DNA of 64,000 bases, taken from NCBI GenBank assembly GCA_963826715.1, contig CAWGYA010000007.1, positions 211,445 to 275,444 of the forward strand, read 5' to 3'. The notes below the pieces were generated by a model. That model made no database searches. It saw only the letters and a program-made list of their open reading frames with translations, and was not told the origin of the DNA. The stretch is from Candidatus Bathyarchaeota archaeon. Lineage in GTDB: Archaea > Thermoproteota > Bathyarchaeia > Bathyarchaeales > Bathycorpusculaceae. Positions within the stretch are counted from its first letter, which is position 1; each line of letters opens with the position of its first letter. Positions 1 through 7,698 of the stretch are shown here, in pieces. Position numbers and translations under genes: made by a program.

Positions 1-1075
1 TTTTCTTTCTTGCTTTCTGAAGGCGTCTCCTACTGATGAAGTTTGAGTCTGGAGCAAGAACTGTAAATTGAAAAGCAATGTATGACAGAACAGTTTTAAT
101 GAAGAAAATCACTACTCCACTTAGCAAAGCCACAGATGCTCCTATGGCGAAAGGAACACCCAGCGCGTTGTAGATTTCACTTGAAATTATTTGAGCATAC
201 CCAATAAAAGCATATCCTTGAGCTTCAACATTACCTGCGACTGAACGAACTATTACAACCTTGTCAAGTGGAATTAGTTGTCCAAGTGATGCGAACACAA
301 AAAGTAAGGCGAGGACTTCAAATCCCCACGCAAAAAATGAAAGTATCATCGGTTTTATAAGCACTCTAGTGTTTTGCAACAACTCCTTCATGCCTTCATG
401 ATAATCATCCAACGCTTTTTGCACCTTAATTTCCAATAGCGCGAGTCTTTTGCGATTTCTACCCAGGGACGATATGAACCCGAATAGAGTACTGACAAAC
501 TTCTTTGCGCTGTTAGGTTTAAAACTAGCAAGGAGCAGTATGAAAAGCGGCAGAGTTAGAAGGAACATTATGCTCCCAAGAGTTATGAGAAGAGAACCTT
601 CGAGAGTGTAGTTCAGTAGAAGCAGAATAATCCCAAGAATCATGCTGCCTAAGTTGAATATTGCTTCATATACATTCTTTGCAACAACCGAAGCTACAGC
701 TTTACCACTTTCTATCTTTGGGTCTTTATTGAGAATATATGCTTTAAATAAGTCGCCTGACCATCCTCCCGGAATCAAATTATCTACAAATACTCCGACC
801 CAATAGAGAATGTATGTTCGGCGAAAACTTAACCTAATCTTTAAGGTTTTGAGGAGCTGGAACCAAACTAGAGTGTGAAAAGTTAATGATATTAAGACGC
901 TAGCGATTGCCAAAGCATAGATGCCTATGTTTACTTTTTCTATAACCGCAATTAATTCGGCCAGACCAACGAAGTACAGAAGATAAAAAATCAGTCCTGT
1001 GTAGCCAAGTAACGCTGAAATAAGTATCCATTTTTTAATCGAAGGGCTAATCAAAGGATGTTGGTCTTTTGTCAT
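1..1075 (-). CDS. Flippase-like (lysylphosphatidylglycerol synthase TM / UPF0104) membrane protein, 3' end outside the window
   Basis: Manually translated minus-strand frame from ATG at 1075 (MTKDQHPLISPSIKKWILISALLG...WVGVFVDNLIPGGWSGDLFKAYIL...); multiple TM helices and the family-typical NxxPxG..GD..KAY motif. Confidence 0.75.
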   Translation of the reverse strand, partial: MTKDQHPLISPSIKKWILISALLGYTGLIFYLLYFVGLAELIAVIEKVNIGIYALAIASVLISLTFHTLVWFQLLKTLKIRLSFRRTYILYWVGVFVDNLIPGGWSGDLFKAYILNKDPKIESGKAVASVVAKNVYEAIFNLGSMILGIILLLLNYTLEGSLLITLGSIMFLLTLPLFILLLASFKPNSAKKFVSTLFGFISSLGRNRKRLALLEIKVQKALDDYHEGMKELLQNTRVLIKPMILSFFAWGFEVLALLFVFASLGQLIPLDKVVIVRSVAGNVEAQGYAFIGYAQIISSEIYNALGVPFAIGASVALLSGVVIFFIKTVLSYIAFQFTVLAPDSNFISRRRLQKARKK

Positions 1076-1205: not shown

Positions 1206-1724
1206 GTGCATAGTTTGCCCAAACTCGTTGCTGTTGTGGGAGCAAAGCATTCAGGCAAAACTACAATTATAGAGCATTTAATCGCGGAGATCAAAAGTCG
1301 AGGTTACACAATAGGCATTATTAAAGAGATGGTGCGCATCCCTAGCATAGATACACCAGCTAAAGAAACTGATCGATATGCTAAAGCAGGCGCAGAAACT
1401 ATCGTTGCAGTCCCGCAGAAAGAAACGGTATTTTTCATCAAGAAAAAGCTTACCTTAAAGGAAATTATGCTTCACTTAAAAGGCATAGATTTTGTGATTT
1501 TAGAAGGCTTTGAAATTGAAGCCTCAATCCCCAAAATTGTTGCCGCTAAAACCTCTGAAGAAGCCCACAGTTACCCAGCCAAGACCATTGCAGTCTCAGG
1601 CATAATCACCGATTCAGAAACAGAAACTAAGCTCGCTTTGGACTTAAAAATTCCGTTGCTTAGTAGTTTTAGTGAAATAAAGCAATTGGTTGATATAGTT
1701 GAGCATAAGGCGTTGGTTTTTTAG
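1206..1724 (+). CDS. mobB: Molybdopterin-guanine dinucleotide biosynthesis protein B
   Basis: P-loop GAKHSGKTT, IGIIK, D-T-x-R-Y-x-x-AGA and VILEGF motifs typical of MobB. Confidence 0.85.
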   Translation: MHSLPKLVAVVGAKHSGKTTIIEHLIAEIKSRGYTIGIIKEMVRIPSIDTPAKETDRYAKAGAETIVAVPQKETVFFIKKKLTLKEIMLHLKGIDFVILEGFEIEASIPKIVAAKTSEEAHSYPAKTIAVSGIITDSETETKLALDLKIPLLSSFSEIKQLVDIVEHKALVF

Positions 1725-2233
1725 TTGACTTGGATCGCTGAGATGCCCCTAACCCACCGTTGGGCATAAAGGTCATCACCGATGATTAACCGCAAGGGTC
1801 CCTCGCCGCCGTCTTTTAACAGCGTGAGAGGTGTGTCATCTTTTTTATAAGCGATTAGGGTGTTTTGGTTTTGTGCTTCCTCCATTGTTATAGTTGCTCC
1901 ATAGCCGTCTTGAGCTTGCACAAAAACCGAAATGCCATTGATATTTGCTTGAGCTTGATTGAGTAGGTCTTTTAAGCAAACCCCTGTGTAATTGAAGACG
2001 CCATTATCTTCTGTTCTGCTACTGGAAGTCAAGCTCACCTGTATGGTCTTTGAAGGATAAGATTCTAGTTCGGCAAATGTTAGAGTGATGGGATTGTGGA
2101 CGTCGCCTTTAACCTGGAGTGAATTAAGCTGTGAATTATCGGGGTGCGTGTAAATATAGAGAGGGACGGCCACTAGGATTAAAATTAATAAAAATATAAG
2201 GGCCCTTTTGGTATTTTTTTGCATTTTAGTCAC
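1721..2233 (-). CDS. Membrane-anchored sulfite-oxidase-fold (Oxidored_molyb-like) protein, single domain
   Basis: N-terminal TM helix; YTGVxLKDLL, AQDGY, LIAY, GPLRLII, RWVRG motifs; GTG start abuts the upstream stop codon. Confidence 0.75.
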   Translation of the reverse strand: MTKMQKNTKRALIFLLILILVAVPLYIYTHPDNSQLNSLQVKGDVHNPITLTFAELESYPSKTIQVSLTSSSRTEDNGVFNYTGVCLKDLLNQAQANINGISVFVQAQDGYGATITMEEAQNQNTLIAYKKDDTPLTLLKDGGEGPLRLIIGDDLYAQRWVRGISAIQVN

Positions 2234-3163
2234 CTATGAAACCGTTATCTCAGACATCCATCTGACCCAGTTTTGACCCCATTTAAACTCTTCAGTGGGT
2301 ACAAACAAACGGAATGGTGCTCCATCATTGGGCGGGATGTATTTTCCGTTTTCTTGGTAACCAATTAACATGTCGTTACTTTGTACTTGTGCGAGAGTGA
2401 ATTCTCTACTGTAGCCATCGATGGCAGTTACCGTGATTTTGGTTGCGTTTGAAAATATACCACTTGCCTGAAGTACGCTCTCGACAGTAACCCCGGTCCA
2501 TTCTGATGTTCGCTGAGGTTCTCCACCAGGAGCAAAAGGGGCATTTACAGTTTTTACTTCGTAGTTTGTAATGTTGTTTCCTGTCAGTACCATTGGATAT
2601 GTAACTGAGCCATTGACGGTTATGGTCCAGGGATCTATGTTAATTTCCGCGACACTTTTAACGTTAAAGTTAGACTGTAAGCCTGGTGTAATGAGTTTTA
2701 GTGGTCCCTCGGATGTATCAGTTATCCAATGTCCATCTTTAGCTAAAGCTAAAATGAATTCGTTTCCCGAATATTGGGTACTGTTGTATGCTTGATAGGT
2801 GTTTATTGTTCGTTTGAAGCCGTCAGAGGAAATGATATTGATGAAGCCAGCGTTCCAGGATGCATTTGTTTCATTAAGAAGTTGTGTTACCGATACTCCT
2901 AGATATGTTGCAGTTTCATCTTTAATTGTAGTCGTGACTTTAGTCAAGTGCATACGAATTAAATCTGATATGCTAAGTGTCTTTTCAACTGCAACGTCCC
3001 CCGTGATCCTTAGTTCTGCGTTCGGAGAATTTCCGAATGGGATTTCTTGATTAGTTGTTTGAGGTTTGTTGATGTTGGTTAAATAATAAAGTGATGATCC
3101 CAGAGCAACTACCACAACGATAATTGTCATAATGGTTAAGACGATTTTTGTGTTTTTATGCAA
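2234..3163 (-). CDS. Membrane-anchored protein with two sulfite-oxidase-fold (Oxidored_molyb-like) domains
   Basis: N-terminal TM helix; repeated YLGVSV..SSDGF..GPLKLI and WTGVTV..AIDGY..GAPFRL..NWVRW; no Cys; several N-x-S/T sequons. Confidence 0.75.
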   Translation of the reverse strand: MHKNTKIVLTIMTIIVVVVALGSSLYYLTNINKPQTTNQEIPFGNSPNAELRITGDVAVEKTLSISDLIRMHLTKVTTTIKDETATYLGVSVTQLLNETNASWNAGFINIISSDGFKRTINTYQAYNSTQYSGNEFILALAKDGHWITDTSEGPLKLITPGLQSNFNVKSVAEINIDPWTITVNGSVTYPMVLTGNNITNYEVKTVNAPFAPGGEPQRTSEWTGVTVESVLQASGIFSNATKITVTAIDGYSREFTLAQVQSNDMLIGYQENGKYIPPNDGAPFRLFVPTEEFKWGQNWVRWMSEITVS

Positions 3164-3725
3164 TTTTTTTTCCTCCTAATCCAAGGGACCCTACTCTGAC
3201 AAGAAGCATATTCGCGATGAACCCACCGACAAAACCACTGATTGCTGCAATTACACTTAAAAAAGCAAGCACAACCCACGGCAAAAAAAGTACCGTAACG
3301 CCAACAAGTACAGTTCCTACAACGTTTGCCAGACTGGATGCCCCCATACAACATGCAAGGCAGCATGCTCTATGTCTAGAAAATAAAAAGAAAACGTCGA
3401 TAGCTAAGCCCGGGGCAAGGTATATTATGAAATTAAGCAAGCCAAAGTTGCCAAAGGGTAGAATTAAGCTAATGAATGCTTGAGTAAGCGATACTAAGGA
3501 TGCGGCGCCGATTTTACGGACAAAGCCAAACGCCATAATTGGCCACATCATGTATAATCCGCCTAAAACAGCTCCTGTCGGGATGTAAGCTGCTCCTATG
3601 AATGGTCCCAATAACGGGTGAAGAAGATTTTTGGTTGCTAAGCCCAAGCTTGCAAAAAGTGAAATAATTACTAGATCTACTGTTGCGATTCTTAGGTTGC
3701 TGTTGCGATTGGTTTGGTTTAGCAG
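3156..3725 (-). CDS. ECF transporter S component (probable CTG start at 3725; ORF track starts at 3647)
   Basis: About 6 TM helices; the frame is open upstream through RIATVDLVIISLFASLGLATKN, a typical first S-component helix; CCLACC motif. Confidence 0.7.
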   Translation of the reverse strand: MLNQTNRNSNLRIATVDLVIISLFASLGLATKNLLHPLLGPFIGAAYIPTGAVLGGLYMMWPIMAFGFVRKIGAASLVSLTQAFISLILPFGNFGLLNFIIYLAPGLAIDVFFLFSRHRACCLACCMGASSLANVVGTVLVGVTVLFLPWVVLAFLSVIAAISGFVGGFIANMLLVRVGSLGLGGKKIA

Positions 3726-3738
3726 ATTCTTAAAGCTC

Positions 3739-3762
3739 CGATATTATATCTTGGTAATATCG
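3739..3762. promoter_or_regulatory. Candidate ModE-type operator (CGATATTA-N8-TAATATCG)
   Basis: Perfect 8-bp inverted repeat between the regulator gene and the ECF-S start; resembles ModE boxes (CGnTATATA-Nx-TATATAnCG). Confidence 0.55.
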
Positions 3763-3797
3763 AGAAATTAAAACGTTACCATTAAAAATTCATGTAA

Positions 3798-4127
3798 TTA
3801 TGAAATTTCTTTAAGAGTGGCCTCCAGTTTAGCCTGAGCTTTTCTAAAACGAAATACCAAATCCTTTCCGACCATGGTTACCTCTGAGGAACCGCCGCCT
3901 TTTGCGCCACCGCGAACTCGTGTAACCAATGATTCCTCAAGCCGATCTTCTGCAAGCGTTATTCGGTGAAGTGCATAACGATAGGACATCCCTAATTCTT
4001 TGGCAGCCTCTAATATTGAGTGGTGTTTGTCTATTGCCTCTAGAAGTTGCGCTAAGCCATCCCCGAAGACTGCTTCGTTTTTCCCGTTTATCATCCAAAG
4101 TTTAAAATTGTAACTCAGTGGGTGCAT
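3798..4127 (-). CDS. modE: ModE-family winged-HTH regulator (short form, no TOBE domains)
   Basis: FGDGLAQLLEAID..HSILEAAKELGMSYRYA..RGGAKGGGSEVT-like signature of the ModE DNA-binding domain. Confidence 0.8.
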   Translation of the reverse strand: MHPLSYNFKLWMINGKNEAVFGDGLAQLLEAIDKHHSILEAAKELGMSYRYALHRITLAEDRLEESLVTRVRGGAKGGGSSEVTMVGKDLVFRFRKAQAKLEATLKEIS

Positions 4128-4278: not shown

Positions 4279-4332
4279 TAATATTATTGCCGAACACGTT
4301 TGCAAATGGAGAACGGAAGTGCTAGAAAAACT

Positions 4333-5199
4333 ATGCAAAAATTAGAACTCAACCAAATTGTTGAAAAAGAACAACTTAATTCTGTAACTAAAAAAATCAC
4401 CGTTTACGCTCCTGATATTGCAGCAAAAGCCAAAGCTGGGCAATTCGTAATCTTCAAAGTACATCAGGACAGCGAACGCATTCCCCTAACTTTATCCTCT
4501 TGGGATAAAGAAAAAGGCACTATCTCCCACATATTCCAAGAAGTAGGTTTTTCAACAAAAGAACTCGGCGCACTTGAAGTCGGACAAAAAATCCAAAGCG
4601 TAGCAGGTCCATTGGGAAACCCGAGCGAAATCAAAAACTTTGGAACCGCTGCAGTAATTTGCGGAGGCTTAGGTACAGCCGTGGCTTACCCTGTAGCTAA
4701 AGCCCTCAAAGAGGCCGGGAATAAAGTCATATCCATAATCGGTGCGAGAAGCGCTGAACTATTCATTTTGGAAGATGAAATGAAAGCGGTATCTGACGAG
4801 GTCTTCTTAACCTCAGACGACGGTACAAAAGGACAGAAAGGGTTTGTCAGTGACGTGCTTAAATCCTTGATCGCGAAAAATTACGACTTTAACATAGTTT
4901 TCGCTATTGGACCCCCCATTATGATGAGCGTAATAGCAGACATCACGCGACCCTACAAAATCAAAACTATTGCCAGCCTAAACCCAATAATGGTAGATGG
5001 CATGGGGATGTGTGGTGCCTGCCGGGTTTCGATTGGTGACAAAACCCAATTCGCCTGCGTGGACGGACCAGAATTTGACGCTCACCAAGTTAACTTTAAA
5101 GAGCTAATGCAAAGGCTCAAATGTTACTGCACTGAAGAAAAACATGACGCCTTAACAACTCAAAAACCAGGAGGAACATGCCAATGTCACAGCCAATAA
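4333..5199 (+). CDS. nfnA: NADH-dependent reduced ferredoxin:NADP+ oxidoreductase small subunit (NfnA/SudB)
   Basis: ERIPLT, GPLG, GGLG and MVDGMGMCGACRV..CVDGPEF 2Fe-2S motif; ATG at 4333. Confidence 0.9.
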   Translation: MQKLELNQIVEKEQLNSVTKKITVYAPDIAAKAKAGQFVIFKVHQDSERIPLTLSSWDKEKGTISHIFQEVGFSTKELGALEVGQKIQSVAGPLGNPSEIKNFGTAAVICGGLGTAVAYPVAKALKEAGNKVISIIGARSAELFILEDEMKAVSDEVFLTSDDGTKGQKGFVSDVLKSLIAKNYDFNIVFAIGPPIMMSVIADITRPYKIKTIASLNPIMVDGMGMCGACRVSIGDKTQFACVDGPEFDAHQVNFKELMQRLKCYCTEEKHDALTTQKPGGTCQCHSQ

Positions 5200-6617
5200 A
5201 AGAAACCCCTAAACACCAAAACCGATTAAAAGCAGTTGAAGTCCAAAAACAGGAACCATCCGCCCGAAGCAAAAACTTTGATGAAGTCGTTTTGGGCTAC
5301 AATGAAGAGCAAGCTCAAGCTGAAGCTTCTCGGTGTCTAAACTGCCCTAAACCCTTCTGTGTGGAGGGATGCCCTGTCAGCGTGGAAATCCCCAAATTCA
5401 TTGCGCTAATCAAACAGAAAGACTATGACGCAGCAATCAAACAAGTCAAAGAAAAAAATAGTTTACCGGCCATCTGCGGTAGAGTTTGTCCGCAAGAAGA
5501 GCAATGCCAAAAAAGATGTATTCTTGGCAAGAAAGGCGAACCTGTTTCCATAGGACGCCTTGAACGCTTCGTTGCCGATCTTGAACAGAAGAAAGGCATA
5601 TCTGCCCAAGCTGTTCCAGCGTTAAACGGCAAAAAAATCGCAGTTGTCGGCGCAGGACCCGCTGGCTTAACAGTTGCCGCAGACCTTGCCAAACTCGGTT
5701 ACAAAGTCACAATATATGAAGCGCTCCACACTGGAGGAGGCGTCTTAGTTTATGGTATCCCAGAATTCAGATTACCCAAACGGATTGTGCAAGCCGAAAT
5801 CGATTACATCCAAAAACTCGGGGTTGAATTACAGCCTGACTATCTAATCGGTAGAATATTTACCGTCGAAGAACTTTTTAAGAAAGGCTTCAGTGCCGTC
5901 TTTATTGCCACGGGTGCAGGACTGCCTAAATTCCTCAATGTTCCAGGAGAAAACCTAAACGGAATCTATAGTGCCAACGAATTTCTCATCCGTGTTAACT
6001 TGATGAAATCGTATGACTTCCCAAAAAACAAAACGCCTATTCGCGTCGGCAAGCAAGTGGCGGTTATAGGGGGCGGCAACGTAGCTTTAGACTCAGCGAG
6101 ATGTGCGCTGCGTTTAGGTGCTGACAAAGTAACAATAATCTATCGCCGTACAAGAAATGAAATGCCTGCACGCCAAGAAGAAATCGAGAACGCTGAAGAA
6201 GAAGGAATAGTTTTCAAGTACTTAACTGCCCCGCTTAAATTCATGGGAGATGAGCTAGGGAATGTTAAGATCATGGATACAATTTCAATGAGACTTTGCG
6301 ACTCAGATGACACTGGAAGACACCAAGTTGCTCCAATCGAAGGCTCACAAGAGGTTATGGATGTTGATACAGTAATAGTTGCTATCGGGCGCACCCCAAA
6401 CCCCATCATACAGGGGACAACACCGGGTTTGAAGACCCAACGCGGTGGCATTATAGCTAGCGACGAGAACTTCAAAACCAGCATCGATGGCGTATATGTA
6501 GGTGGCGACATCGCAACAGGCGAAGCAACCGTTATCAGTGCTATGGGTACAGGTAAAACTGCGGCTAAGGCCATCCACGAATATCTCTCTAAGGAAAAAC
6601 AAAAACCCAAAAAATAA
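5178..6617 (+). CDS. nfnB: NfnB/SudA large subunit (GltD-like)
   Basis: RCLNC..CVEGCP, CGRVCPQEEQC, GAGPAG, GGGNVA; overlaps nfnA. Confidence 0.9.
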   Translation: MPMSQPIKETPKHQNRLKAVEVQKQEPSARSKNFDEVVLGYNEEQAQAEASRCLNCPKPFCVEGCPVSVEIPKFIALIKQKDYDAAIKQVKEKNSLPAICGRVCPQEEQCQKRCILGKKGEPVSIGRLERFVADLEQKKGISAQAVPALNGKKIAVVGAGPAGLTVAADLAKLGYKVTIYEALHTGGGVLVYGIPEFRLPKRIVQAEIDYIQKLGVELQPDYLIGRIFTVEELFKKGFSAVFIATGAGLPKFLNVPGENLNGIYSANEFLIRVNLMKSYDFPKNKTPIRVGKQVAVIGGGNVALDSARCALRLGADKVTIIYRRTRNEMPARQEEIENAEEEGIVFKYLTAPLKFMGDELGNVKIMDTISMRLCDSDDTGRHQVAPIEGSQEVMDVDTVIVAIGRTPNPIIQGTTPGLKTQRGGIIASDENFKTSIDGVYVGGDIATGEATVISAMGTGKTAAKAIHEYLSKEKQKPKK

Positions 6618-6651
6618 ACTGCTAACTTTTTGTTAGCCTCAAAATTTTTCT

Positions 6652-7698
6652 TTATTGTTTTATTTTTAATTCATAATTTTCAGGTGAGGCTTCTTTAAAA
6701 GCTCGGTTTACTGCTGTTTCGGCTATATTGAAGGTGCAATGAGCAATTCGTTTGATGTTGTCGCGAATCGAACATATTCCGCATACCAACTCTGCACTTT
6801 TTTGTGGTCCTGTAAAGGCGCGGGAAGTAATTTCAACATCAATTTTATCCATTTTCTGGCGGAACTTCATGATTCTTACTGCGTTGTTGACGTCTTTTGC
6901 GAAGAAGGCTTCAACCGCCTGTACGTAAAGATTTGTAACTTCTGTTCCTGCGCTGACCATAAGAGCCAATACGTCATTGGGAATGGTTTGTTGGACACCG
7001 CTTAGCATGATTATGTGGCGAGTTATGTCCGAGGCGTAATCAGAGGCATGTTCCATATGGGTGACAAGCATCTGATGGTCCATACAGTCCAACGGGTCAA
7101 CGTGTAACTCCTTGGCTAAATGTGGGTCTTGACCTGCATTACGCAAAATTCTGATAATGAAGAAGGCAAATTGATCCACATCGTCATCAAGAGAAAAGGA
7201 GGATTTCGCAAGCGCTACATCATTGTTTTTAAGGGCGGTTAAAGCGCCTTCGCACATTGACCTTGAAATTAGATGCATACGTTGAAGTGCCTGCTCGAGA
7301 GATGCTTTAGACTCATCCATGAGGCTTTGGATATAAACGCATTTTGCATCAGCCTCCATAACTCTAAGATAAAGGCGCCCAGCCATGTTGCGGATGGCTT
7401 TGGTTTGAGGTACAGTGAAAATATTGTCAGATGTAAGCATAATGCCTGTGTAACCGTTGAGGAAGGCGCCCAGAATCTTTTGGGTTATGTAAATTTCCTC
7501 TTCGTTTTGCCCCACAGCTAATGTAATTTCTTTTAGATCAGATTTCTTTGTCGCGCTGGGGTAGATAACCAAAGAGCGGTCTTTTTGAATGTTGACGATA
7601 ACAGTTTGTCCTTTTTTGAGGTCGTTTAGCTGCATCCAATCTTTTGGAAGGGAAACTACTAGCGAGGATTTCCCCAGGGACATGATTTTTCGTTCCAA
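6652..7698 (-). CDS. Phosphate uptake regulator PhoU family with N-terminal AbrB domain
   Basis: RKIMSLGKSSLVVSLPKDW AbrB start; DDDVD, EH..DY and KRIAH PhoU-like repeats. Confidence 0.85.
   Translation of the reverse strand: MERKIMSLGKSSLVVSLPKDWMQLNDLKKGQTVIVNIQKDRSLVIYPSATKKSDLKEITLAVGQNEEEIYITQKILGAFLNGYTGIMLTSDNIFTVPQTKAIRNMAGRLYLRVMEADAKCVYIQSLMDESKASLEQALQRMHLISRSMCEGALTALKNNDVALAKSSFSLDDDVDQFAFFIIRILRNAGQDPHLAKELHVDPLDCMDHQMLVTHMEHASDYASDITRHIIMLSGVQQTIPNDVLALMVSAGTEVTNLYVQAVEAFFAKDVNNAVRIMKFRQKMDKIDVEITSRAFTGPQKSAELVCGICSIRDNIKRIAHCTFNIAETAVNRAFKEASPENYELKIKQ

Follow-up and report, generated by a model that had tools for sequence, protein, structure and literature searches.

A candidate ECF-type importer for metal-loaded molybdopterin in Bathyarchaeia and Bacillota, with surface sulfite-oxidase-fold proteins lacking the molybdenum-ligand cysteine

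A minus-strand operon in a 64,000-nucleotide (nt) stretch of a Candidatus Bathyarchaeota archaeon genome (contig CAWGYA010000007.1, positions 211,445 to 275,444; the whole stretch is called the window here) encodes a membrane protein of the energy-coupling factor (ECF) S-component type and two membrane-anchored proteins of the sulfite oxidase (SUOX) fold, 309 and 170 amino acids (aa) long. From the sequence evidence, we consider it probable that this operon is the substrate-capture part of an ECF-type importer for metal-loaded molybdopterin, that is, the molybdenum or tungsten cofactor (Moco/Wco), and its cargo would most likely be a metal-loaded, nucleotide-free form of molybdopterin. In two domains of life, the module is enriched in genomes that lack MoaC and MoaE and keep pterin-dependent enzymes. 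An earlier note on this DNA had proposed that Moco/Wco is captured outside the cell and imported by an ECF system, an idea that, within the reach of computation, is strongly supported by the pterin pocket, by the gene links and by the loss of cofactor synthesis in carriers.

The gene content of the window's own genome (G000; 96% complete, 8 contigs) suggests that this organism cannot make molybdopterin. MoaC, the C-terminal domain of MoaA and MoaE gave no match in it, in searches whose controls matched 11 of 14 named genomes. The same genome encodes aldehyde ferredoxin oxidoreductase (AOR), FwdB (TIGR03129, 547 bits against a cut-off of 327.8) together with FwdA and FwdC, FdhD, a second MobB, MoeA and three Cys-bearing SUOX enzymes. 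FwdB was confirmed with this NCBIfam model since PF00384 gave no match in G000 or in the congener G135, and weak matches in three other carriers (G141, G081 and G087). No match to SBP_bac_11, the ModA/WtpA family, was found in G000 (controls matched 14 of 14 named genomes), and a PF12849 match considered as TupA proved to be PstS, located inside a pstSCAB-phoU operon.

This pattern recurs in the class. Among 151 Bathyarchaeia genomes of at least 80% completeness, a strong S-component match (E < 1e-70) is present in six, namely G000, G135 and G141 of one genus (g1), G081 and G087 of a second (g19), and G007. Loss of synthesis was judged from MoaC, MoaE and the MoaA C-domain, with MoeA added in subsets. 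MoaC is found in 123 and MoaE in 125 of the 151 genomes; the five carriers from g1 and g19 lack MoaC, MoaE and the MoaA C-domain (0/5 each), and all five encode AOR. Their seven cluster-free congeners (G038, G084, G090, G111 and G117 of g1; G132 and G144 of g19) all have both MoaC and MoaE. In four of the five g1 congeners MoaC and MoaE are encoded on separate contigs, so that a single gap in the assembly would not take out both, and the G081 carrier genome is a single contig. MoeA is retained in two of the five carriers lacking MoaC and MoaE. Fourteen class genomes lack MoaC, MoaE and the cluster, and eight of these (family f28) are also without AOR and PF00384. The complete chromosome of Candidatus Bathyarchaeum tardum (L036) carries the cluster and gave no match to MoaC; this organism is described as having multiple cofactor deficiencies and depending on a methanogenic partner, molybdenum going unmentioned in the sections of the report at hand (PMC10477458).

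The same module occurs in Bacillota, in a sample of 401 genomes from the phylum of one bacterial locus (L049), in which the S-component profile gave 66 matches, 52 of them strong (E < 1e-25). Strong matches are present in 24 of 206 genomes with both MoaC and AOR (12%), in 5 of 72 with MoaC and no AOR, in 21 of 39 with AOR and no MoaC (54%), and in 2 of 84 with neither. Among AOR-bearing bacteria, the module goes with the absence of MoaC at an odds ratio of 8.8 and a naive Fisher p of 2.6e-8, a value inflated by the non-independence of related genomes. The 23 bacterial carriers without MoaC encode AOR (21), an enzyme of the xanthine dehydrogenase (XDH) family (13) or at least one of the two (22); either enzyme was found in 6 of 30 bacteria free of both module and MoaC, a non-random control set made up of the lowest-numbered genomes. 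MoaE is absent from all 29 MoaC-negative bacteria searched and MoeA from all five carriers searched, and one genome (G472) has its S-component 3 kb from an XDH-family gene. Genomes that have pterin-dependent Mo/W enzymes and lack MoaA, MoaC and MoaE, often MoeA as well, must obtain the finished pterin from outside.

The two SUOX-fold proteins of the window both score above the PF00174 cut-off, and the N-terminal membrane anchors ascribed to them are borne out by one hydrophobic helix each, within residues 3-32 of the 309-aa protein and at the N-terminus of the 170-aa protein. Their cysteine content is likewise as the earlier note had claimed: the 309-aa protein, which has six N-x-S/T sequons, contains no Cys, and the 170-aa protein contains only C86, in a TGVC motif. 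Alignment of the three domains with two HCVEGWS paralogues and two other SUOX-like paralogues of the same genome places C86 outside the Mo-ligand column, where the 170-aa protein has Ser and the second domain of the 309-aa protein has Pro/Gly; in domain 1 of the 309-aa protein the hairpin is 7 residues shorter and the Cys column falls in the deletion. The canonical HCVEGWS motif is carried by three SUOX paralogues in this genome.

An AlphaFold2 (AF2) model of the 170-aa protein, based on 52 homologues (pLDDT 88.4), shows a membrane helix at residues 6-29 followed by a SUOX fold, and Foldseek retrieved SorA, SoxC, YedY, chicken sulfite oxidase and PruR with it, all at probability 1.00. D109, Y111, G143, G145, R148 and L149 are invariant across the 52 homologues and R159 and W160 nearly so; the conserved motifs are D109-G-Y111, comprising the pterin-stacking Tyr and a nearby Asp, G-x-G-P-x-R-L, and R-W, and the protein carries the sequence GGEGP. 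The fold, the retention of the pterin pocket and the loss of the Mo-ligand Cys, all three of which had been predicted from the sequence, are upheld by the model, by the conserved pocket motifs and by the alignment.

The closest solved relative in function is PruR, a periplasmic, non-catalytic SUOX-fold pterin binder without the Mo-ligand Cys, in which Y104 and W160 stack against the pterin and N102 forms a hydrogen bond with it (PMC11194511; structures 7kos, 7kou, 7kom and 7rkb in the PDB, from Agrobacterium and other Proteobacteria). PruR (7kos) and SorA tie as the best PDB sequence matches of the 170-aa protein (E 4.7e-7), its model superposes on PruR with target-normalised Foldseek TM-scores of 0.72-0.75, and D109-G-Y111 aligns with N102-D-Y104 of PruR. 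Both are small secreted single SUOX-fold proteins without the Cys, and they share the stacking Tyr (Y104 in PruR, Y111 here). Unlike PruR, whose Cys column holds the Trp of a PW motif and whose signaling target is the cyclic-di-GMP enzyme DcpA, the proteins described here have Ser, Pro or Gly in that column, are accompanied by an S-component and by Moco maturation genes, and would act in uptake rather than in signaling. The 170-aa protein has no PruR-type PW motif at its Cys column, and in hairpin length it equals the Cys-bearing paralogues that the genome also encodes.

Two more SUOX-like paralogues of the window's genome (C2:137760-138554 and C8:480484-481308) represent a third type of surface SUOX-fold protein there: each begins with a signal sequence and is membrane-anchored at the C-terminus, and their Cys stands in the non-canonical motifs LRCFGD and LYCDGA.

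The membrane protein of the operon is an ECF S-component of the PF09819/YkoE Pfam family. The PF09819 match covers profile positions 2-120 of 121 in a 195-aa open frame, and the AF2 model (pLDDT 84.4) has six helices and finds the ECF S-component 5edl as its best Foldseek match in the PDB (TMq 0.72), followed by the PanT and RibU S-components. The length of 163 aa given in the earlier note has to be corrected to about 190 aa, the length of each of the 298 homologues, as the Pfam match and all homologues reach upstream of the TTG at 3647 from which the shorter version would begin and which would cost the protein its first helix.

YkoE-type S-components are linked to the uptake of thiamine precursors in Bacillus, and public annotations of the homologues read thiamin/hydroxymethylpyrimidine; a protein atlas search matched generic "ECF transporter S component" clusters only. 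The protein of the window shares with YkoE (PF09819, 5edl) its Pfam family, the six-helix fold and the presumed use of EcfAA'T, and differs from it by a motif of its own, GG[LVI]YMMWP, by control through ModE or a Moco riboswitch, and by pairing with outside SUOX-fold proteins; it forms a separate subfamily within the family. It had been asked whether the S-component would group with a known vitamin family: it does belong to the YkoE Pfam family, yet no thiamine (TPP) element was found in 32 loci by an Rfam scan at gathering scores, in which the sole matches were to RF01055, and the neighbors are Moco genes. In Bathyarchaeia, the subfamily has in addition a motif RH(K/R)ACCxxCC, invariant, with its four Cys, in 11 S-components; in the model it takes up the loop joining helices 4 and 5 and the first residues of helix 5, and it would lie at the cytoplasmic face, because the model and the positive-inside rule both place it there. 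The distant homologues L048 and L049 lack it.

The S-component was co-modeled with the 170-aa protein, giving a complex with a score of 0.45 against 0.00 for the best of three controls. The runs share at least 87% of contacts, with partner pLDDT of at least 75. Among 80 solved complexes 58 attained the mark applied, and among 110 mismatched pairs 2 did; those attaining it at 0.60 or under were 7 of the 80 complexes and both mismatches, and the prediction accordingly lends weak support to the pairing. CbiQ/EcfT gave no match on the window's contig; an ecfT-ecfA-ecfA' operon (CbiQ and two ABC_tran genes) lies at C8:949006-951475, in keeping with the shared module that had been postulated from the absence of ECF A and T genes at the locus, and we infer that this EcfAA'T module serves the S-component of the window.

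Gene neighborhoods tie the module to Moco maturation. One genome per species was scanned with the S-component and the neighbors in the resulting 40 loci were counted by BLAST and clustering. A SUOX-fold gene stands beside the S-component in 38 of the 40, the 170-aa type being the constant partner, and the 309-aa type follows directly in about half of the Bathyarchaeia loci (19/38, read by hand). A modE homologue and a MobB-family gene are each present in 32 of the 40 loci, MoeA and a MobA-like gene in 14 each, and FdhD in 10; no DcpA-type cyclic-di-GMP gene was found in these neighborhoods. The distant archaeal locus L048 (39% identity) has the order S-component, two-domain SUOX protein, MobB, membrane-anchored PF01663 type I nucleotide pyrophosphatase, 170-aa-type protein, two ECF-type ABC ATPases and MobA-like gene. 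In the bacterial locus L049, the S-component is convergent with XdhC and a MobA/MocA-like gene. Among the 30 best bacterial loci (1.5-kb flanks), SUOX-fold genes adjoin the S-component in 23, Phosphodiest PF01663 pyrophosphatases in 15 and ABC ATPases in 12. The bacterial SUOX partners are of two kinds, membrane-anchored proteins of ~170-180 aa with a GGxGP motif and lipoproteins; the Mo-ligand Cys is absent from 11 of 11 aligned partners, and DG[YF] is kept in all but one. A link to Mo/W genes, which a neighborhood survey had been expected to reveal or refute, is thus seen with ModE, MobB, MobA, MoeA and FdhD in Bathyarchaeia and with XdhC, a MobA/MocA-like gene and Moco/Tuco riboswitches in Bacillota.

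Further genes recur around the archaeal S-components. A SelD-like AIRS gene lies within 7 kb in 16 of the 40 loci and HGD-D genes are present in 10, and in the window's genome SelD (NF010705, 335 bits against 291), an HGD-D protein and a DsrE-like protein are encoded side by side about 14-17 kb upstream of the window start (C7:194034-197104); this recurrence may hint at a step involving selenium or sulfur that is connected with Mo/W enzymes. A calcineurin-like phosphoesterase is present as well in five Bathyarchaeia loci; the L043 copy starts with a signal sequence and is anchored at its C-terminus. That copy and an extra 309-aa-type gene adjoin a gene (L043:8240-9802) for a 520-aa protein with an Oxidored_molyb match and, by eye, several repeats; similar genes in L023, L028 and L040 complete a set of membrane-anchored proteins of 486-530 aa. 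Clusters of the Bathyarchaeia type (63-64% identity) were also met in metagenome-assembled genomes (MAGs) labeled Saccharibacteria, Methanocella and Limnocylindrales (L031, L032 and L046), placements that probably reflect mis-binning and not gene transfer.

The gene directly upstream of the S-component had been called ModE; its 109-aa product corresponds to a candidate ModE-type DNA-binding domain only, scoring above the cut-off with PF00126 (29.5 bits against 26.6) and under it with TIGR00637 (ModE_repress; 61.7 bits against 98.5), and is without the Mop/TOBE molybdate-binding domains. A homologue occupies the same place in 32 of the 40 loci. By eye, in 37 related upstream regions and the window, a box resembling BRE/TATA elements reads AAGGTTTATTT in most homologous loci and AACGTTTTAATTT in the window, and is presumably an archaeal promoter. 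Between this box and the S-component start sits a palindrome, CGATATTA-N8-TAATATCG in the window, whose family consensus, CGATRTTAC-N6-7-GTAAYATCG, is found by eye in most of the 37 regions. A first, strict pattern (CG.TAT...ATA.CG) had matched only 4 of 40 upstream regions, and it was the in-register reading that gave this consensus; under a strict pattern the window site is unique within the 2.64-Mb genome. An RNA hairpin was ruled out: the half-sites vary independently, and the palindrome therefore fits a protein site rather than an RNA stem. It is presumably the operator of the adjacent ModE-type protein. The sole other near-match to the relaxed operator pattern in the genome (GATGTTA-N10-TAACATC, at C8:108297) has no open reading frame (ORF) of at least 90 aa starting within 300 nt.

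In Bacillota, the operon is immediately preceded by an RF01055 Moco/tungsten cofactor (Tuco) riboswitch in L059 (77.7 bits), L071 (72.3 bits) and L088 (59.1 bits), the cut-off being 36. All three are without the hairpin at model positions 59-73, which we assume to be the P3 stem. Regulski et al. linked the absence of the P3 stem to the tungsten cofactor (PMC2408646).

These observations may be assembled into a mechanism. Other cells would release the cofactor, and the membrane-anchored nucleotide pyrophosphatase of many bacterial loci and one archaeal locus would trim molybdopterin guanine or cytosine dinucleotide (MGD/MCD) to the molybdopterin form. The membrane-anchored SUOX-fold proteins would then bind the cofactor in their pterin pocket, in a capture or protection role and reversibly, because the Cys ligand is absent, and would hand it to the YkoE-like S-component working with a shared EcfA-EcfA'-EcfT. 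Cytoplasmic MobB and, where present, MobA, MoeA, FdhD and XdhC would finish and insert the cofactor, and expression would be set by the ModE-type repressor at the promoter palindrome in Bathyarchaeia and by the Moco/Tuco riboswitch in the three Bacillota loci. Where synthesis has been kept, the module would serve salvage, by analogy with many vitamin importers. The scheme in full, i.e., ECF import of the intact metal-loaded cofactor in both domains, with Cys-less chaperones and pyrophosphatase trimming outside, rebuilding by MobB/MobA/XdhC/FdhD inside, and, in Bathyarchaeia, CCxxCC holding the metal-dithiolene at hand-off, is put forward tentatively, as one that could well be right or wrong; within it, the role of CCxxCC and the transported form are guesses.

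Several observations weigh against import of Moco/Wco by this module. MoaC is present in 29 of 52 bacterial carriers and in 23 of the 40 genomes behind the surveyed loci (22 of 38 of Bathyarchaeia type), and a rule equating the module with auxotrophy had to be rejected on the latter count. Carrier G007 encodes MoaE and, where a contig ends, a fragment of MoaC. Conversely, 18 of 39 AOR-bearing, MoaC-negative bacteria have no strong module match, and six AOR-bearing Bathyarchaeia lack MoaC, MoaE and the cluster alike, although their assemblies are fragmented (90-280 contigs, 82-96% complete). Most genomes are MAGs, in which a missing match is not proof of absence, and the inflated Fisher p counts here as well. 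The riboswitch was found in just 3 of 30 bacterial loci (1.5-kb flanks), and ModE and Moco riboswitches control metal transporters too. ECF transporters normally work without outside binding proteins. The profile alignment of the 170-aa protein to PruR, whose cleft is described as too short for Moco, shows no hairpin gap. Finally, translation of the S-component in this genome is uncertain: at 3731-3729 (-), the window reads AAG in place of the ATG shared by all aligned homologues and by the congener G135, with contigs from two sequencing runs (X1 and X4) covering the site and showing no difference. A GGAG stands 4 nt upstream of the AAG; beyond it, translation might begin at a CTG two codons downstream or at the TTG at 3647.

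An importer of molybdate or tungstate (or thiomolybdate/thiotungstate), in which the SUOX-fold proteins bind the anion outside and the S-component carries the metal alone, is unlikely. In its favor, modABC and tupABC are classic targets of ModE-type regulators and Moco/Tuco riboswitches (PMC2408646), the window's genome has no other evident metal route given its SBP_bac_11 and PstS results, the invariant CCxxCC of the Bathyarchaeia S-component is a plausible soft-metal site, and most carriers still make molybdopterin. Uptake of metal alone, however, leaves unexplained the enrichment of carriers among genomes without MoaC and MoaE that keep AOR or XDH. Imported metal would also be of no use to cells that have neither molybdopterin synthesis nor MoeA (0/5 in bacteria, 2/5 in archaea). 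Nor does an outside nucleotide pyrophosphatase have a role in anion uptake, and CCxxCC is predicted at the cytoplasmic end of helix 5 rather than in an outer pocket and is missing from L048 and L049. The SUOX fold is moreover a pterin pocket, and PruR binds pterins without a metal ligand (PMC11194511). Uptake of metal alone is possible in genomes that keep synthesis, but cannot explain auxotrophs lacking MoeA.

Import or sensing of another pterin (of neopterin/monapterin type, or a methanopterin or folate precursor), as by PruR in Proteobacteria, seems quite improbable. The tie of PruR as best PDB match and the ungapped alignment with it, its short cleft taking small pterins (PMC11194511), speak for this possibility, as does the use of the tetrahydromethanopterin branch by Bathyarchaeia (PMC10477458); on the other hand, the conserved cofactor-gene neighbors are all of Moco maturation (MobB, MobA, MoeA, FdhD and XdhC), the sole riboswitch found is Moco/Tuco, the phyletic link is to loss of MoaA, MoaC and MoaE, and both the PW motif and the DcpA-type partner gene of PruR are absent.

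It is scarcely credible that the SUOX-fold proteins are extracellular redox enzymes of the MsrP/sulfite oxidase kind with the membrane protein as electron or assembly partner, as Pfam and public automatic annotations (molybdopterin-dependent oxidoreductase) and the precedent of MsrP, which works with the membrane partner MsrQ, might suggest, given that all three domains and all 11 aligned bacterial partners lack the Mo-ligand Cys, which paralogues in the same genome do possess, that no haem or Fe-S partner is found within the operon, that the membrane protein has an ECF S-component fold with ECF-type ATPases beside it in L048 and 12 of 30 bacterial loci, and that the SUOX-fold proteins carry plain membrane anchors or, in bacteria, lipoprotein signals, no signal for twin-arginine translocation (Tat), the usual route for cofactor-loaded enzymes, being seen by inspection.

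Import of metal-loaded molybdopterin would set the module apart from known systems. Like ModABC, WtpABC and TupABC, it would supply the Mo/W cofactor pathway under control of ModE or a Moco/Tuco riboswitch; unlike these transporters, whose receptors have a binding-protein fold and take the bare anion, it has ECF architecture and a pterin-pocket receptor and occurs also in genomes unable to make the pterin. To our knowledge, ECF transporters have no outside binding protein, and the Mo/W cofactor is regarded as too unstable for exchange between cells. Caenorhabditis elegans nevertheless takes up ready-made dietary Moco, including the protein-bound form, by an animal system without sequence relation to this one, whose transporter is unnamed in the abstracts (PMC7849362, PMC9793310).

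Our search, which covered the open-access literature, met with no account of this module or of any importer of Moco or molybdopterin in prokaryotes. A survey of riboswitch regulons names, in its relevant section, importers of B12, thiamin, riboflavin, queuosine and folate and none of Moco (PMC3766115), and type 11 secretion proteins have been speculated to serve molybdopterin uptake (PMC12282271). A 2018 survey identified several hundred prokaryotes with molybdoenzymes and an incomplete cofactor pathway ("orphan molybdoprotein"), most of them without a known Mo transporter; the explanations given in the portion of it available to us are new biosynthetic components or Mo-independent enzyme forms, not uptake, and the question is left open there (PMC6147048).

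The module is a concrete gene set with which uptake can be tested as an answer to the orphan molybdoenzymes. If the proposal is correct, it would be the first Moco importer from any prokaryote and also the first case of an ECF transporter served by binding proteins of its own outside the cell, giving this transporter class a new working mode and a new class of substrate, and it would explain organisms that have molybdoenzymes without Moco synthesis or known Mo transporters (PMC6147048). The Mo/W cofactor would then be a shared good in anoxic communities, auxotrophy for it and cross-feeding would enter the ecology of Bathyarchaeia and many Bacillota, with a bearing on the dependence of cultured Bathyarchaeia on partner organisms, and genome-based metabolic predictions for both groups would change. 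Laboratories would also gain a means of delivering the cofactor into cells.

The features of the locus are collected in Table 1, and the five genes lie where the earlier note had placed them, as judged from ORFs and family-model matches. On the minus strand, the order is ModE-type gene, S-component, 309-aa gene and 170-aa gene. The translational coupling described for them is confirmed: the 309-aa gene starts at a TTG with a GGAGG in front and overlaps the S-component stop by 8 nt, and the start of the 170-aa gene abuts the stop of the 309-aa gene. mobB, identified by a score above the TIGR00176 equivalog cut-off and encoding a P-loop protein that acts in making molybdopterin guanine dinucleotide, is convergent with the 170-aa gene, with a tail-to-tail overlap of 4 nt.

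Table 1. Genes and candidate regulatory elements of the locus (window coordinates).
Feature	Position	Strand	Basis
mobB	1206-1724	+	TIGR00176 88.7 bits (cut-off 76.2); PF03205 83.8 bits
170-aa single SUOX-fold protein	1721-2233	-	one Oxidored_molyb domain, E 5e-17
309-aa two-domain SUOX-fold protein	2234-3163	-	two Oxidored_molyb stretches, E 4.5e-31
ECF S-component, PF09819 (YkoE-like), ~190 aa	3156-3731	-	52.9 bits (cut-off 25.2)
Candidate palindromic operator CGATATTA-N8-TAATATCG	3739-3762	no strand	by eye and pattern search
BRE/TATA-like box AACGTTTTAATTT	3765-3777	-	by eye, aligned upstream regions
ModE-type helix-turn-helix regulator, 109 aa, DNA-binding domain only	3798-4127	-	PF00126 29.5 bits

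At the edge of the window, positions 2-1075 (-) encode an LPG_synthase_TM membrane protein (PF03706, E 2e-35) that runs off the window start and for which no link to the cluster was seen. On the far side of modE, positions 4300-7698 encode a gltD-like pyridine-nucleotide oxidoreductase, the small Fe-S/FAD subunit belonging to it, and a PhoU protein that includes an AbrB/MazE-type domain; the gltD-like and PhoU neighbors of modE recur in 13-18 of the 40 related loci.

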